A stretch of 45,207 nucleotides of DNA. Source: Escherichia phage welsh. The DNA is taken from sequence record NC_073078.1; one strand, written 5' to 3'. Below, in pieces: positions 11,235 through 40,518 of this stretch. Within the stretch, counting starts at the first letter, position 1. Each line of letters starts with the position of its first letter. The notes under the pieces were generated by a model. It saw nothing but the letters and a program-made list of their open reading frames with translations. It had not been told where the DNA came from and ran no database searches. The position numbers and the translations under genes are program-made.

Positions 11235-11313
11235 GTTATCATCTCCTATATTTGGTTGAGTTTTAGTATTACACCTCTCAACCAGGATTGCAACCAATTA
11301 CGAGGATTTAGCT

Positions 11314-13746: not shown

Positions 13747-13769
13747 GGGGCCATCCGGCCCCTTTTTTA
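13747..13769. terminator. Bidirectional terminator between the tail fibre gene and the end of the leftward operon
   Basis: GGGGCC-atcc-GGCCCC followed by TTTTTT on the + strand; genes converge here. Confidence 0.6.
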
Positions 13770-14342
13770 GTTTGAGTTTTCCCAGTCCATTTTGCGCCGC
13801 ACCAGCGGGCTTTCGTAATATTCCTTGCCTTCCACTTCCACCAGAGGCCAGTCGTTCACAATCACGTATGGCTCTGCGATATCCTCGATCACGCCGTGCG
13901 CGCTTTGCGGCCCTAACGATACACCCACCAGGATAACACCGGCAACGCGACGTGACAGATACTCGCGAGCGCAACGCGCCTCTACCAGCCCGCGACGGAT
14001 GCCGCTGGTGGCTTTAACCTCGTAAGTCCAAACGGCATCGATCACATGCTCGCGGAAGTCGGGGCCGGATTTAACCTTGCGCTTACCGACCATAATAATA
14101 TCGCCGCGGTCAATGGTATTGGCGCTAAACAGGCCGGTACGCATGAGCAAGCCTTGCGGTATGCAACTACGCCCGCCCGCCTGCCCCTCAAGGTACATAC
14201 CGGCAAACATCTCGCCCAAAACACCGACAAGACGGCTTTGCTTGCACGCGTCAGACTTTAAGCGCCACTGGTCAAACTCGATGCTTGCTATCATCGCCGC
14301 AAGGTGGAATTGTTTACCGGATATTTCATATTCGCCGTACAT
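13767..14342 (-). CDS. Hypothetical protein, possible PD-(D/E)XK-type nuclease
   Basis: 191 aa; RBS GAGGA before ATG; segment HVIDAVWTYEVKAT fits a D...ExK nuclease signature. The product call is weak. Confidence 0.35.
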   Translation of the reverse strand: MYGEYEISGKQFHLAAMIASIEFDQWRLKSDACKQSRLVGVLGEMFAGMYLEGQAGGRSCIPQGLLMRTGLFSANTIDRGDIIMVGKRKVKSGPDFREHVIDAVWTYEVKATSGIRRGLVEARCAREYLSRRVAGVILVGVSLGPQSAHGVIEDIAEPYVIVNDWPLVEVEGKEYYESPLVRRKMDWENSN

Positions 14343-14384
14343 CGTGTGGTCCTCATTGATGCGGGCCGAAGCCCGCGATTAGAA

Positions 14385-14939
14385 TTATTTCAGTGCGCTA
14401 CGTACCAGTGTTTTTTCCATGTTGCGGAAGTCTTCCGGCGTCATGAGGGTTTTGGATCCGTCTTCGCCAGTTAGAACTACCATAGGCTGGACGTCCTGGG
14501 CTACAACTCCGAAATTGGCAGCTTTAACGGTCTTCCCTAACGAGGCCGCCATATCCTCGGTAACGCGCATTGCACTGTTATACGCATTAATCTCGCCATC
14601 AAGACGCACGGACAGACCTTTGAGGCTTTCAAACTGTTCTGCCGTTGTATCGATCTGAATCTCGTCATGCACGGTCATGTAAGACTCGCCCAGCAGGGCG
14701 GCATACGCTACCAGGTCCACGATGTTATCTTCCTGGTGTTTACGGTGCTGGCGTACCAGCTTTAGGCAGATCAAGAAGGTCCAGGCTTCTTGCTCGGTCA
14801 GGTCGCGACCGGTAAGCGCGTTAAACACGGCGGCAATTTGTTTCGCGCTGCGTTCCTCTTTCGCGTTGTCATAGCCGTTTTCTTTTCCGCGCTGTTCCAT
14901 AGTGGTGGCGGCGTTTTTGCAGTATTCGTATGCTTTCAT
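14385..14939 (-). CDS. Hypothetical protein
   Basis: 184 aa. N-terminal pattern EQRGKENGY...LTxxDxxxFLICLKLVRxxxK...DNIVDLVAYAALLGE resembles a domain I recall from phage nucleotide-metabolism proteins, but I cannot name the family with confidence. A GGGAGGC-n6-GCCTCCC hairpin sits in the 5' leader. Confidence 0.45.
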   Translation of the reverse strand: MKAYEYCKNAATTMEQRGKENGYDNAKEERSAKQIAAVFNALTGRDLTEQEAWTFLICLKLVRQHRKHQEDNIVDLVAYAALLGESYMTVHDEIQIDTTAEQFESLKGLSVRLDGEINAYNSAMRVTEDMAASLGKTVKAANFGVVAQDVQPMVVLTGEDGSKTLMTPEDFRNMEKTLVRSALK

Positions 14940-15002
14940 GATGTGGTCCTGTTTATGGGAGGCCGTATTGCCTCCCGACGCGTTAACTATAGTGCAACCA
15001 AC

Positions 15003-15473
15003 CTATTGGTTGCAAGTGAATTTTGCAACGTTTATTGCGTAAATTTTCGGGACCAAATCACCACACGCCCGACGAATTGCCGCGATGTTCTTCGGACAGT
15101 CTTCAATGATGACCAGTTCCGACACGTCCGCATAGCAGACCATTTTGAACACGGCGCACGCCTTAAACTCTGGCGGCGGGGTGTCGTCCAGCATGTGGCG
15201 CATAAACAACCTGCCGTTCGGGAATACTTCCAATTGCTCGGCGGTGGTGTCCCAACATTCGCGCTGCCGGTTTGTCAGATACGCGATCTCGAAGCCTTGC
15301 TCTTTGTACATGCGCAACAGCGGCAGCATATCCATGTTCAGGTCTTCGCGTATGTGCGCTTTGTGCCACTTTGCCCAAAATGTTGATTTCGTTTTTATAC
15401 CCGGAACCAGGTCGGCGCGTGCATCACTCGAACCATTAATAACGCCATCAAGATCACAAATCAGTAGTTTCAT
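15003..15473 (-). CDS. HAD-superfamily phosphatase (nucleotidase-like)
   Basis: N-terminal LLICDLDGVI is the HAD motif I (DxDG); 156 aa. Confidence 0.65.
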   Translation of the reverse strand: MKLLICDLDGVINGSSDARADLVPGIKTKSTFWAKWHKAHIREDLNMDMLPLLRMYKEQGFEIAYLTNRQRECWDTTAEQLEVFPNGRLFMRHMLDDTPPPEFKACAVFKMVCYADVSELVIIEDCPKNIAAIRRACGDLVPKIYAINVAKFTCNQ

Positions 15474-15703
15474 TTTAAGCTCTCAATAAGGGTGTATCGG
15501 GCGCTGCGCGCGGTGAAGGAGTTGCACACGAAATGGCAACGCTGAGTCATGACAAGCCAACCGGTGAGGTCAAGGCCCAGGATGTATTCGGGGCGAGACG
15601 CGCGCACCACACGATTGCGTCGCGGGTCGATGTTATAGTCTCTTTGCATTTGGTATACGACCGCGGGGTCGCGGTCAACGATTAAGATATTCATGTAACT
15701 CAC
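15470..15703 (-). CDS. Hypothetical protein
   Basis: 77 aa ORF whose ends overlap neighbouring genes within the operon. Confidence 0.35.
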   Translation of the reverse strand: MSYMNILIVDRDPAVVYQMQRDYNIDPRRNRVVRASRPEYILGLDLTGWLVMTQRCHFVCNSFTARSARYTLIESLK

Positions 15704-16160
15704 TCTCGCTCATTATTTCAATTTGTGCGCTGCCGATGGGCGGCGCTTCGTCAAATATTATCAATTGCTGGCATTTGTTATTGCTCGGCCCTACTTCACC
15801 GGTGACGGCGTGAATGAATCTAATCCGCCAGTCCAGAAGAATTATCAGGTTTGCAGTCTTCCGGGCCAGCCTCGCCCACTTCGTCGACGTGTCCTGATTC
15901 AGCAGCATGACAGTCCGGCGTCCGTGCGCTGCGCACTCTACCCACGGCAGCGGATCGGAATACGGCGGATTGCACCACTTCCACCCTTTCAACTCGGACC
16001 AGTCCACATCAAGCGCGCTGTGTTCCGCCGTGAAGTAACGCGGTAGCAGGTGGTTTGCATCGCTTGCCGCCATATCGTAACGGAATCGGTACTTCCGACG
16101 AAGCGGTTTAAATAAAGCTGGCGGCGTGCGCCAGCTATCTTTTTGCTCACTCTTCTGCAT
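15675..16160 (-). CDS. DNA N6-adenine methyltransferase (phage Dam-type)
   Basis: DSWRTPP near the N-terminus and WCNPPYS (NPPY catalytic motif); 161 aa, typical of the small phage Dam family. Confidence 0.8.
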   Translation of the reverse strand: MQKSEQKDSWRTPPALFKPLRRKYRFRYDMAASDANHLLPRYFTAEHSALDVDWSELKGWKWCNPPYSDPLPWVECAAHGRRTVMLLNQDTSTKWARLARKTANLIILLDWRIRFIHAVTGEVGPSNNKCQQLIIFDEAPPIGSAQIEIMSESELHEYLNR

Positions 16161-16169
16161 GATCTGGGT

Positions 16170-16604
16170 CTATCGCATACAGGGCAATTTTCTTGTCGCT
16201 GGACAGAACGCGCCGGACTCGGGCCATACCGCCGGACCCAGCGGTCGGCTATCGGAATAGTAGCTGCCGTTCGCACGCCACGCTATCAGCACCGGGTCTT
16301 TCCAGTCGATCTTAGACTGGCGGCCCTTCGGGCGCACGTATTCCTCGGCCCGTTTGCAATGCTCGCGCAGACCTTCGGCAGTGATGCGGTTTAGCGAAAC
16401 GCTGGTTGTGTATCCGGTGCGCTGCATAATCCCCATCAATTCGAAAAGCAGTTCGAAGCGCTCCTCTAGCTCCTGGCGCACTTTCTTCTCGCCTTCATAT
16501 AGCGCCTGTTTGGTGTCCGCCAACGCGTTCGCACGTTCGGCCTGTTCGCGGGCTTCGAGGCATTGCGCGGCCCAGTATGCTTTTTCTTCTTGTAAAATTT
16601 TCAT
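16170..16604 (-). CDS. Hypothetical protein
   Basis: 144 aa; N-terminal coiled-coil character; no recognisable motif. Confidence 0.4.
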   Translation of the reverse strand: MKILQEEKAYWAAQCLEAREQAERANALADTKQALYEGEKKVRQELEERFELLFELMGIMQRTGYTTSVSLNRITAEGLREHCKRAEEYVRPKGRQSKIDWKDPVLIAWRANGSYYSDSRPLGPAVWPESGAFCPATRKLPCMR

Positions 16605-16847
16605 TTATTTAATCTCCGTAGTGCGAATCTCTTTGCGTGGAATAAATTTGCCATCCATCTCCACCCAGCAGACTCCGTATCGCCATTGGGTATTACGTCC
16701 CGTTTGCTCGGCATATACGGTCTTGCATCCGTAGCGTTCCGTATAGTAAATAGCCGCGGTAGGTACGAAAATACAAACGGCAAACATGAGGGTGAGTATC
16801 ACCCAAAATCGAAGGTCGCCGTCGTAGTCGAAAAATAATGATCTCAT
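16605..16847 (-). CDS. Small membrane protein
   Basis: Internal ATG 16847 with GGAGA RBS; one transmembrane segment (FWVILTLMFAVCIFVPTAAIYY); 80 aa. Confidence 0.45.
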   Translation of the reverse strand: MRSLFFDYDGDLRFWVILTLMFAVCIFVPTAAIYYTERYGCKTVYAEQTGRNTQWRYGVCWVEMDGKFIPRKEIRTTEIK

Positions 16848-16928
16848 CGTGTTGTCTCCAGGTATTAAAAAGGGCGTCCAAACCGGACACCCTAAATATA
16901 ATGCAACCAATATGATTATGCAACCAAT

Positions 16929-17252
16929 TTACGAATAAAAATTTGGGTCGCGCGCAACGTCTACCAGGTAAAGGTTGCTGATTCGGTTGCCGTAGTGGCC
17001 TGGTGTTCGCTGGCGGCACACAACGGCGAAGCCGGGAGGAATTGTATTGCCGGTCGCGATAATCCACGCCACGCGTGCGCCCGATAGAGTTTTGCCGTTG
17101 CATTCGATGCGCGTGCCGCCATCGGCAGTGTTAAGGTTGCCGATTTTGCAGCCGGTGGACTTCAGACGAATGACGCCGGTTTTGCTGTCGTAGGAGAATA
17201 ACTGGTTAGTCATTGCGACCGAAAAATCAATGGCTTCGAATGTAGTATTCAT
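16929..17252 (-). CDS. HNH-like endonuclease (phage HNH_3-type, possibly degenerate)
   Basis: YDSKTGVIRLK...GGTRIECNGKTLSGARVAWIIATGN...GHYGNRISNLYLV resembles the phage HNH pattern, but the usual first His is replaced. Confidence 0.5.
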   Translation of the reverse strand: MNTTFEAIDFSVAMTNQLFSYDSKTGVIRLKSTGCKIGNLNTADGGTRIECNGKTLSGARVAWIIATGNTIPPGFAVVCRQRTPGHYGNRISNLYLVDVARDPNFYS

Positions 17253-17959
17253 TTTAAATTTTCCTCATTGACTGCTATCGCGAAGCCGCGCGGGGTGAGC
17301 GACCGGATTAATTTTGTGCGTGCTGATTTGCCTCCGAGGCGACTATACTGCTTCGAGTACCCTTTTTCAACGAAAACGGGTTTCTTCTCTGGCATACGGA
17401 AGCCGTTGCCGGTCCATAAGCAGGTCAGCTTCGGATATGAATCGCGGGCGTTGATGTATTCCGGGAACAACGGATGTACGTCATCTTCCGGCAGATAGCC
17501 GCCATACTCCCACGGGTCGAACGAGTGATCCGGCTTGCGCCACTGGGTGGAAAGCACACTGCGCGGATTCTCAATCATATATGGCACTTCGAAGAAGTCA
17601 CCCAGGTAAGCGGCGATCTTCGCGGTGCGCACCGCCTTAAGCTGGAAGGCAGGGTCGCGGGCGCGTTTGCGCGGGAAAGCTGGCGCACCGCTAACCGCCA
17701 GATCCGTACACGGCGGGAATGCATAAATGATATCCGGCGTACCGAAATCGCCATTCATCGCGCGGTCCACGAAGTCCAGATCGATAAACACATTGCGATA
17801 GCGTATTCCGCGACCATAAATCCGGTAGTCAAGGTAAGACCCGTGATCGGCTTCGGAGTAGTTGAAGCAATAACACTTATGCCCCATCTCGGCAGCACGC
17901 TCAATCATCAAGCCGCTGCCGTCAAACAACGACCAGATTGTCATTTTAGCAATAGTCAT
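17249..17959 (-). CDS. DNA cytosine-5 methyltransferase
   Basis: LFDGSG (motif I, AdoMet binding), AFPPCTDLAVSG (catalytic PC motif) and YMIENPRS (ENV-type motif). Confidence 0.8.
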   Translation of the reverse strand: MTIAKMTIWSLFDGSGLMIERAAEMGHKCYCFNYSEADHGSYLDYRIYGRGIRYRNVFIDLDFVDRAMNGDFGTPDIIYAFPPCTDLAVSGAPAFPRKRARDPAFQLKAVRTAKIAAYLGDFFEVPYMIENPRSVLSTQWRKPDHSFDPWEYGGYLPEDDVHPLFPEYINARDSYPKLTCLWTGNGFRMPEKKPVFVEKGYSKQYSRLGGKSARTKLIRSLTPRGFAIAVNEENLK

Positions 17960-19860: not shown

Positions 19861-20139
19861 CTATGCGACCAATTCAGCAACCAATAAATCGCAGTCGGAT
19901 ATGTTGTCGATAACGCGAACGTCAGCACCGCGGCGGGCCATTCGCTCATGTTCACGTACCTGGTGCGGCTTCGGTTTTCCTCCGGGGCGCTTCACTTCGA
20001 CGAACACTATTTTGCCGTTGATGATAATAATCAGGTCGGGCGCACCTGCGCGCCCCTCCCATGCCAGTTTTCGGCAGAATCCGCCAACATCTTTCACCCG
20101 TCTCATCAGGTGGCTTTGAATCTTGCCTTCTGGTGTCAT
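19861..20139 (-). CDS. VRR-NUC domain nuclease
   Basis: GAPDLIIIINGKIVFVEVKRPGGKPKPHQVREHE matches the VRR-NUC PD-(D/E)XK core; ATG overlaps the polymerase stop. Confidence 0.7.
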   Translation of the reverse strand: MTPEGKIQSHLMRRVKDVGGFCRKLAWEGRAGAPDLIIIINGKIVFVEVKRPGGKPKPHQVREHERMARRGADVRVIDNISDCDLLVAELVA

Positions 20140-23285: not shown

Positions 23286-23354
23286 ATGTATCGGGGTTAT
23301 TGGAAGCCACCCCGTTCGGCTTGGTTGCTAATCTACTTGGTTGCGCCTGAGCGG

Positions 23355-29154: not shown

Positions 29155-29229
29155 ATTTTGCGCGCATTGGTTGCCGATATGGGAATTCCCATATCGCTAA
29201 AAGATTAAATTTTGCGCGCGTTGGTTGCC
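29146..29229. repeat. 30-bp direct repeats flanking a perfect 20-bp palindrome
   Basis: AAAGATTAAATTTTGCGCGC(A/G)TTGGTTGCC at about 29146-29175 and 29200-29229 (1 mismatch); GATATGGGAATTCCCATATC at about 29176-29195; the left repeat overlaps the primase stop codon. Confidence 0.8.
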
Positions 29230-29269
29230 ATTTTGGGTGTTTCTATCTGGTCGTATTGGTTGCCGTGTA

Positions 29270-29480
29270 GTGTAAATATAATGAATAGTTATGCAGTTTT
29301 ATTGCATAAAGTAAGCGGGACAAAAAGCGGGACAAACAAGGGGCGGGACAAAGCGGGACAGCACCCCCGTCCCGCCCCGGATGGCGCGGCTTCCAGAGGA
29401 GCGGGACAGCGGGACAGCACCCCAGTCTTTCAGACTAGACGGGGGTCAACGGCCCCCCTCGTCTGAGACTGAATAAAATC
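29270..29480. repeat. GCGGGACA box array, copy B, with the conserved 3' hairpin module
   Basis: Seven or more GCGGGAC boxes. About 29393-29477 is near-identical to copy A (about 1016-1090); the 39-bp stretch between box clusters differs in sequence but is the same length as in copy A. Confidence 0.8.
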
Positions 29481-29626
29481 CGGGGATTGCAAAATACACG
29501 GCAGCATGATGCGAAGCGCGGTCACGGATGAACTAGGCAACCAATGCGAGTTGCAGAATGGTGGGTGAAAAATGCAGTTTGCAGTCACAGCAGATAGCGA
29601 TCAACTTTTTCATGCGCGTGATTAAT

Positions 29627-29662
29627 ATTGGTTGCATTCGGCCTGGCACCTTGCTATATTGG
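29627..29662 (+). promoter_or_regulatory. Candidate promoter overlapping two ATTGGTTGCA motifs
   Basis: TTGCAT, 17 nt, TATATT, about 30 nt before ATG 29689. Confidence 0.35.
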
Positions 29663-29688
29663 TTGCACACCAACATGAGGACTGAACA

Positions 29689-32764: not shown

Positions 32765-32825
32765 GCTTGACTCGCAACCAACACAGGGGCCATACTGCAA
32801 CCAATCAACGAGAGGAGTAATCAAG

Positions 32826-40363: not shown

Positions 40364-40518
40364 TTTGTTTTTCCTTCATATCTCTGTTGGTGTGCAACCA
40401 ATATATGCAACCAATACACGGATTGCAAGCTAATTTTGCGATTATTTTTATCACTGATAATATTAGAGGCGTGAAGTCGAGCGGGTGGCCCGCTCTGCCA
40501 CAATCCCAGGGGGATAGC

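Follow-up and report, generated by a model that had tools for sequence, protein, structure and literature searches.

Among the closest described systems are phage products that bacterial immunity senses. The 711-bp dcm gene of phage K42 (Drexlerviridae) triggers retron Ec86, and its product places 5-methylcytosine (5mC) on the multicopy single-stranded DNA (msDNA) of the retron, as detected by liquid chromatography-mass spectrometry. The authors of that study also mutated the CCTGG motif of the msDNA to test the effect on defence, and used the K42 Dcm variant C82A/E128A/K175A/K176A as an inactive control (Wang et al., bioRxiv 10.1101/2023.08.16.553469). Ksap1 triggers defence in Klebsiella pneumoniae when it is bound by the Avs2 receptor (KpAvs2) of this species (Bechon et al. 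2024, PMC11564622). Here we analyze a cluster of nine genes (positions 13767-17959) in a 45,207-nucleotide stretch of DNA, hereafter the window, from Escherichia phage welsh (NC_073078.1), a Dhillonvirus and HK578-like siphophage of E. coli. The cluster encodes homologues of both K42 Dcm and Ksap1, together with an N6-adenine methyltransferase of the Dam family. Based on homology and on site statistics, we consider anti-restriction by self-methylation the best available reading of the two methyltransferases, a plausible one that we hold with moderate confidence.

The region is a conserved end module of the leftward DNA-metabolism and replication block in Dhillonvirus, and is known and already annotated. 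All nine predicted open reading frames (ORFs) are real and lie on the minus strand, at the coordinates listed in Table 1. A megablast search with the cluster returned 160 phage records at 80-99% nucleotide identity, 146 of which cover at least 80% of it (80-95% identity); identity to more than 140 deposited genomes is ~91-93%. The records come almost entirely from Dhillonvirus phages of Escherichia or Shigella (e.g., Oekolampad/Bas18, KS_S9, jat, and SECphi18). Relatives in GenBank have the identical nine leftward genes, flanked by an SNF2-type helicase gene and a convergent lateral tail-fibre gene; given these matching gene calls, the cluster is real and its description largely repeats existing annotation. 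The Oekolampad labels, for instance, are 'Dcm-like C5 cytosine methyltransferase', 'putative homing endonuclease', 'Dam-like N6-adenine methyltransferase' and 'putative phosphatase', the other genes being called hypothetical. Gene order is also kept in two metagenomic relatives with 55-80% protein identity: helicase, Dcm-like, 107-aa (amino acid) protein, (membrane protein), ~150-aa protein, Dam, 76-aa protein, HAD phosphatase, small ORFs, DUF6378 protein, 191/194-aa protein and, finally, the convergent tail fibre. The refinements offered here concern the compact Dcm family, a PD-(D/E)XK fold, the Ksap1 homologue, the weak HNH label of one protein, an accessory membrane gene and internal promoter-like elements. 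They do not change the current understanding of phage DNA modification.

A prior inspection of the DNA alone (the sequence-only reading) had proposed two orphan DNA methyltransferases in this region, and motif invariance in alignments indicates that the catalytic motifs of both are intact. The Dcm-like protein falls into PHROG 757 (E 6e-84), has no Pfam (including PF00145) or NCBIfam match at E<=0.1, and gave nothing significant in a search of PDB sequences. Its family is large, with 2874 clusters of ~230-aa homologues, and is present in 1509 phage records (Drexlerviridae, rV5-like, Klebsiella, Vibrio, and other phages). A precomputed PF00145 match exists for just 3 of 120 listed homologues. 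That a compact Dcm family with more than 1500 phage records slips past both Pfam and NCBIfam is a caveat for automated surveys of methyltransferases.

Among 34 Dcm-like homologues (57-84% identity), the residues F12, G14-S-G16, P82-P83-C84-T85, and E130-N131-P132 are invariant, as is the C-terminal LGGK...IRSLTPRG. Motif I, which binds S-adenosylmethionine, corresponds to F12-D-G14-S-G16, and motif IV, with the catalytic cysteine, to P82-P83-C84. The FxGxG and PC motifs claimed earlier are thus present, while the third, motif VI, given as ENV, actually reads ENP (residues 130-132). Conservation extends to W140-R141 and to a C-terminal IRSLTPRGFAxAV helix, with no unambiguous assignment to motifs VIII-X, and the recognition region comprises only ~45 residues. 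The AlphaFold2 model has a predicted local distance difference test score (pLDDT) of 88.5, and the top 50 matches of a Foldseek search against the PDB are all DNMT3A, DNMT3B or DNMT3C structures (best E 2.5e-7, probability 1.00, template-modelling score ~0.5).

A full-length comparison of the protein with the 236-aa gp14 of SECphi27 (Tempevirinae, Warwickvirus) gives 54% identity, and in gp14 C82, E128, K175, and K176 land exactly on the PPC, ENP, and YxKK motifs. This level of identity and the matching cysteine, glutamate and lysine positions identify the welsh protein as a genuine member of a compact family of C5-methyltransferases with experimentally demonstrated activity. By analogy with homologues, for which 5mC at CCWGG has been demonstrated, the welsh enzyme most likely targets CCWGG. 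A more distant homologue (37% identity) is encoded by Klebsiella phage vB_Kpl_K49PH164C2 (locus positions 1582-2361). It has LFNRSRHM where welsh has LFDGSGLM and FAECT in place of FPPCT, while ENP is kept; judging from these residues, it may have lost its activity or been repurposed.

The second methyltransferase matches PF05869 over its full length (E 1.8e-35; 122.5 bits, cut-off 28.1), as well as the orphan methyltransferase models of PADLOC; it has no significant match among PDB sequences. Its TIGR01712 score (86 bits) lies under the equivalog cut-off of 97, which marks welsh Dam as a divergent member. D29-x-A-A and N64-P-P-Y67 are invariant relative to homologues down to 35% identity, in agreement with the N6-adenine methyltransferase and NPPY motif recognized from the DNA. 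By analogy with the family, welsh Dam is probably specific for GATC. PADLOC returned no match for any of the non-methyltransferase genes of the cluster. Genes for hypermodification had not been recognized in the window, and this agrees with the BASEL description of Dhillonvirus versus Queuovirinae.

The site content of the window fits a protective role for the two enzymes. GATC occurs at 166 sites (observed/expected ratio, O/E, 0.80) and CCWGG at 157 sites (O/E 0.93). In contrast, 11 of 49 6-bp palindromes with six or more expected copies are missing altogether (AAGCTT, CAGCTG, GCCGGC, GGCGCC, GGGCCC, CGGCCG, CACGTG, CCCGGG, GCATGC, GGTACC, and TGGCCA), versus one of 1901 non-palindromic hexamers. 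The one missing non-palindromic hexamer is GAGACC/GGTCTC, which we take to be the Eco31I/BsaI site. The median O/E is 0.68 for palindromes versus 1.0 for non-palindromes. Purging of type II sites while GATC and CCWGG are tolerated is what would be expected if methylation protected those two sites. Under anti-restriction by self-methylation, both methyltransferases would keep replicating phage DNA fully methylated at host-type sites, independently of the Dam/Dcm state of the host. Progeny would be protected from methylation-sensitive restriction, EcoRII-like at CCWGG and MboI/DpnII-like at GATC, and the remaining type II sites would be handled via sequence avoidance.

Several points weigh against a protective role. 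E. coli K-12 already methylates GATC and CCWGG, so any benefit would be limited to hosts deficient in dam/dcm or to phases of rapid replication. In the BASEL collection, dhillonviruses show comparatively high sensitivity to restriction-modification (RM) systems of types I, II, and III, and related Drexlerviridae show no simple link between methyltransferase genes and RM resistance. We found no methylation data for welsh or for any Dhillonvirus, and the specificity of Dam-family enzymes is not readable from sequence. The type II enzymes named in BASEL (EcoRI and EcoRV) do not recognize GATC or CCWGG, so the sensitivity to RM systems does not refute self-methylation. Phage methyltransferases can also be liabilities: Dcm triggers retron Eco1 (bioRxiv 10.1101/2023.08.16.553469) and Dam triggers retron Sen2. 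Moreover, viable escapers from KpAvs2 delete part of ksap1 and part of the gene upstream of it (PMC11564622), which by gene order is probably dam.

These escapers also bear on a different explanation, in which methylation serves a purpose internal to the phage (a mark for replication or packaging, escape from host mismatch repair or SeqA binding, or the timing of expression) and the neighboring genes are unrelated accessory genes that share the operon. The location of the genes, directly downstream of those for helicase, polymerase and single-stranded DNA-binding protein in the replication block, is in line with such a purpose, as is their near-invariance across the genus (96-100%), expected of housekeeping functions. 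The lack of a clear RM-resistance phenotype in BASEL and the mild under-representation of GATC point the same way. However, the escapers missing part of the probable dam gene still plaque, and the Dcm-like family is scattered over unrelated phage groups, a pattern typical of counter-defence genes. We regard an internal purpose as a tentative possibility and, overall, fairly unlikely.

The last gene of the leftward block encodes a 191-aa protein whose family is tiny: it accounts for 7 clusters in a set of 5.8 billion clustered sequences and for 15 representatives in one of 1.84 billion proteins. A search of PDB sequences gave nothing significant. Eighteen sequences, with identities as low as 23%, all share the residues G40, E44, G64, R68, D81, E108, K110, and Y128. 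In the AlphaFold model, which is confident (pLDDT 90.5), E44 lies in helix 34-54, D81 is at the start of strand 82-92, and E108-x-K110 is in strand 97-112. The order of the core elements, alpha-beta-beta-beta-alpha-beta, fits that of I-Ssp6803I (2ost), SSV D212 (2w8m) and the Hjc resolvases (2wcw, 1gef), with which the model has in common the glutamate on helix 1, the aspartate that opens strand 2, and the ExK on strand 3. In BFVD, a library of viral structures, the model matched similarly sized, uncharacterized proteins from phages and a DUF4365 protein (E 4.1e-3); a match to T4 endonuclease IV was weak (E 0.059). We therefore assign, with high confidence in the modelled structure, a PD-(D/E)XK fold with its catalytic signature, and predict that the protein is nuclease-like. 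The suggestion of a possible PD-(D/E)XK nuclease is thus supported at the level of the fold and the E-D-ExK signature. This assignment provides a testable function for a protein called hypothetical in ~160 genomes. Single-protein scans of viral, metagenome, and genome collections for distant relatives yielded no confirmed loci. A tblastn search of a phage collection placed a 33%-identical homologue a few hundred bases downstream of Dcm-like and Dam genes in a ~49-kb Klebsiella phage. The 191-aa protein is the only candidate for a cognate endonuclease in the cluster, its one link to the methyltransferases being gene proximity.

Two further genes could in principle act with a nuclease. The putative HAD phosphatase belongs to PHROG 415 (E 1.6e-36), which is labelled 'polynucleotide kinase'. 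Motifs I-IV can be read in the sequence (D7-L-D9-G, LTNR with T67-N-R, K104, and E124-D125), so that the DxDG phosphatase called earlier (DLDG at residues 7-10) holds on the basis of its intact motifs. The protein reaches 23 bits with PF03767, the class-B acid phosphatase model (cut-off 27), and scores far under the cut-offs of the TIGR HAD models. No PDB sequence was significantly similar; the best alignment, to the class C acid phosphatase 2i33, is weak and covers motifs I-II (DxD, SNR). The DxDG, S/T-N-R and acidic motif IV are shared with subfamily IIIB/class C acid phosphatases (e(P4)-like 5'-nucleotidase) and with the phosphatase of T4 polynucleotide kinase. Unlike these, the welsh protein is under all curated cut-offs, has neither a kinase domain nor a signal peptide, and is only 156 aa long. 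Phage GeorgBuechner/Bas16 keeps only residues 100-156 of this protein, which indicates that the gene is dispensable on K-12.

The 184-aa protein has a match to DUF6378 (PF19905) at residues 16-85 (E 7e-10; 39.5 bits, cut-off 27.1). Many phages encode this domain, either alone in a short protein or within longer ones, and its genes often lie among those for replication or nucleotide metabolism. In phage mEp021 the DUF6378 gene is flanked by a Dam gene and a Dcm-like gene. The invariant residues are mostly charged (R17, D24, E29, S31, K60, R63, D71, D75, Y79, and E85). Searches of the PDB with the protein sequence and with a DUF6378 profile found no solved relative, and we found nothing functional on DUF6378 in the literature. 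The labels 'phosphofructokinase' and 'nucleotide modification associated protein', which some DUF6378 proteins carry, have no supporting domain match. The nucleotide-metabolism domain suspected in the 184-aa protein was therefore not recovered, DUF6378 being its only match. Remodelling of the nucleotide pool, the other role proposed for these genes, has no direct support: the domain is a DUF, and the HAD gene is naturally deleted in Bas16.

Gene content of this kind could indicate an RM-like or host-DNA-degradation module, in which the methyltransferases act with the PD-(D/E)XK protein, the latter cutting DNA that either lacks or bears the methylation pattern of the phage, and the HAD and DUF6378 proteins process the released nucleotides. 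The restriction-endonuclease-like fold with its intact E-D-ExK signature and the weak structural match to T4 endonuclease IV are consistent with this, as are the recurrent gene neighborhoods in the Klebsiella phage and in mEp021 and the resemblance of the HAD protein to nucleotidase-type acid phosphatases of classes B and C. However, E. coli DNA normally bears the same Dam and Dcm marks, which would make for poor discrimination; the linkage may just reflect shared Dhillonvirus/Drexlerviridae ancestry; and a 5'-nucleotidase would waste, rather than salvage, deoxynucleoside monophosphates. Given also the truncation of the HAD gene in Bas16 and a DUF6378 domain with no known activity, we consider such a module unlikely. 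A bolder version, which we rate as a long shot, is a methylation-aware module for DNA degradation and nucleotide clean-up that unites both methyltransferases with the PD-(D/E)XK, HAD and DUF6378 proteins. If it were true, the nuclease would read Dam/Dcm-type marks (on DNA of the host or a competitor phage, or on retron msDNA), and it would fall to the phosphatase and the DUF6378 protein to destroy the modified mononucleotides set free, such as N6-methyl-dAMP (m6-dAMP), a bacterial danger signal according to a 2026 preprint. In that case, function and not ancestry would account for the recurrent neighborhoods, with Dcm-like, Dam and nuclease-like genes in the Klebsiella phage and a DUF6378 gene between Dam and Dcm-like genes in mEp021.

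Adjoining the dcm-like gene, whose stop overlaps the start of the next gene by 4 nt, is the gene for a 107-aa protein that had been called HNH-like. The label comes from PHROG 99, an HNH family (E 3.4e-16). No Pfam or NCBIfam match was found at E<=0.1, and a profile search of the PDB returned none at E<=10. An hhalign comparison of the 107-aa family with I-HmuI, using a sequence that agreed with 1U3E, gave a probability of 0.1, i.e., no relation. A word-based homologue search recovered only five Dhillonvirus clusters. The protein is 40% identical to gp31 of Edwardsiella phage eiAU, the gene for which has a helicase gene on one side and a canonical PF00145 methyltransferase gene on the other. 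The sole invariant histidine in a six-sequence alignment of the family is H86 (in GHY), three residues before N89.

In GenBank the 107-aa protein is a 'putative homing endonuclease', and together with its assignment to PHROG 99 this raises the possibility that dcm and the HNH-like gene form a selfish mobile cassette, a homing endonuclease plus a methyltransferase. The distribution of the gene argues otherwise: it was found in 161 phage records, nearly all Dhillonvirus, always adjoins dcm, and occupies the same place in essentially every Dhillonvirus and in diverged relatives. The protein is also only 107 aa long and lacks a Pfam HNH match, and the position that, from the HNH_3 pattern, we take to hold the catalytic histidine is C, L or L in the homologues. 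As the genes are fixed across the genus, we reject the homing cassette, which appears extremely improbable. From its sequence, the 107-aa protein is probably a fixed, degenerate HNH-like domain and not a homing endonuclease, and its nuclease activity is doubtful.

Table 1. Genes and sequence elements of the cluster and its borders in phage welsh (window coordinates).
Feature	Coordinates	Strand	Basis
Terminator-like hairpin GGGGCC-atcc-GGCCCC, then T6	13747..13768	.	Read from sequence
191-aa protein, predicted PD-(D/E)XK (restriction-endonuclease-like) fold, last gene of leftward block	13767..14342	-	Fold and signature
184-aa protein, N-terminal DUF6378 (~residues 1-88) and lineage-specific C-terminal half	14385..14939	-	PF19905
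Promoter-like TTGCAA-18-TATAGT inside inverted TTGGTTGCA pair, upstream of 184-aa gene	14986..15015	-	
Putative HAD-superfamily phosphatase, 156 aa	15003..15473	-	PHROG 415, motifs
Ksap1 homologue, 74 aa	15470..15694	-	91% identity to SECphi18 Ksap1, synteny
Phage-type N6-adenine DNA methyltransferase (Dam family), 161 aa	15675..16160	-	PF05869
144-aa coiled-coil-rich protein	16170..16604	-	PHROG 10530
Single-pass membrane protein, 80 aa	16605..16847	-	PHROG 18961, transmembrane helix
Two TTGGTTGCA copies, promoter-like TTGCAT-17-TATATT, then 10-bp-stem hairpin and T5	16871..16927	-	
107-aa 'HNH-like' protein, fixed core gene	16929..17252	-	PHROG 99 only
Compact Dcm-like C5-cytosine DNA methyltransferase, 236 aa	17249..17959	-	PHROG 757, motifs, fold

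The small membrane protein noticed from the DNA has one transmembrane helix (residues 15-33, Kyte-Doolittle 2.38). PHROG 18961 matches residues 22-101 of the mechanically called ORF, which begins with a TTG at 16910; the start is probably the ATG at 16847, giving 80 aa. The gene is missing in SECphi18 (locus 2287-2369), where the promoter, hairpin and Shine-Dalgarno element that stands upstream of it in welsh (the 16871-16927 element) precedes and abuts the next gene, that of the 144-aa homologue. The fusion of this element to the 144-aa homologue in a phage without the membrane gene identifies the latter as an accessory (moron-like) insertion.

The 144-aa protein has no Pfam match, and the 'DNA ligase' label that it carries in some records has no supporting domain match. 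It is 97% identical to its Oekolampad homologue over residues 1-125 and divergent thereafter, due to a 1-bp deletion relative to Oekolampad at ~16228 that changes the reading frame over the final ~19 codons. The homologues are 152 aa long in Oekolampad, KS_S9, and SECphi18 and 154 aa in Pubbukkers, and all overlap the start of Dam; the Pubbukkers sequence is too diverged near 16228 to show the deletion. Either a sequencing error or natural variation may account for the deletion, and exact-match scans with both variants of the tail returned zero matches for either.

The cluster had been placed at the distal end of the early operon. The hairpin with its T6 run, which separates the convergent stops of the tail-fibre and 191-aa genes, supports the end of a leftward block at this point. 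Internal promoter-like and terminator-like elements, overlooked in the sequence-only reading, suggest that the cluster may not be a simple, uninterrupted operon tail. The promoter-like part of the first internal element spans 16927-16895, and its hairpin 16893-16871. Its repeat, TTGGTTGCA, has 12 exact copies in the window and 27 with at most one mismatch, versus 10.9 expected (0 of 100 shuffles). The sites are at 11289, 14993-15014, 16902-16927, 19864-19884, 23321-23345, 26353, 29167-29667, 30212, 32773-32804, and 40393-40414, mostly as intergenic pairs of the form TTGCA(A/T)-17-TATATT-GGTTGCA that are similar to sigma-70 promoters. Judged by sequence, the pairs resemble a conserved phage promoter or operator. 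A separate stem-loop without a T-run (GCGGGC-ttcg-GCCCGC, 14361-14376) lies between the stop of the 184-aa gene and the Shine-Dalgarno sequence of the 191-aa gene, and may be an RNA stabilizer or processing site.

One of the ORFs that the sequence-only reading had left among its unknowns is ksap1, which was overlooked. The 74-aa product is 91% identical over 74 aa to SECphi18 gp51, the published Ksap1, and occupies the same slot, between Dam and the HAD phosphatase. No other gene of the cluster varies as much as ksap1, with 57-91% identity in close relatives, in which the neighboring genes are 96-100% identical, and 54-97% identity genus-wide. In phage GeorgBuechner/Bas16 (MZ501070.1 / NC_073066.1), a natural deletion has removed the C-terminal end of Ksap1 together with residues 1-99 of the HAD protein. 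Its effect on Ksap1 agrees with the published absence of KpAvs2 defence against Bas16, and the deletion indicates that both genes are dispensable.

Taken with Dcm (retron Eco1) and Dam (retron Sen2), Ksap1 (KpAvs2) brings to at least three the products of the cluster that are sensed by bacterial immunity, directly or via homologues. This helps to predict which defences would stop this phage, and is of modest practical value. Escapers of the Dhillonvirus 'phage98' from Retron-Eco7 map to one gene of unknown function (PMC12640716), which might be one of the cluster genes. A cluster gene was also considered as the RAZR trigger in SECphi18 and ruled out, as the trigger is the portal protein.

Compared with the experimentally studied SECphi18 protein, welsh Ksap1 has seven substitutions, including K30V. 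It retains L39, L47, T50, and F60, and carries the SECphi6-type V30. K30V is one of three SECphi6-type changes that jointly abolish activation of KpAvs2 (PMC11564622), and recognition of the welsh variant by KpAvs2 is uncertain given this residue. Like welsh, K42, a KarlJaspers-like Hanrivervirus, has a 711-bp dcm gene for a 236-aa protein, and K42 residues C82, E128, and K175 correspond to C84, E130, and K177 in welsh. The stretch from ENP to the C-terminal motif is well conserved between welsh and the Warwickvirus representative. Unlike K42 Dcm, the welsh enzyme belongs to the Dhillonvirus lineage, and the lysine equivalent to K176 is replaced by leucine (YPKLT).

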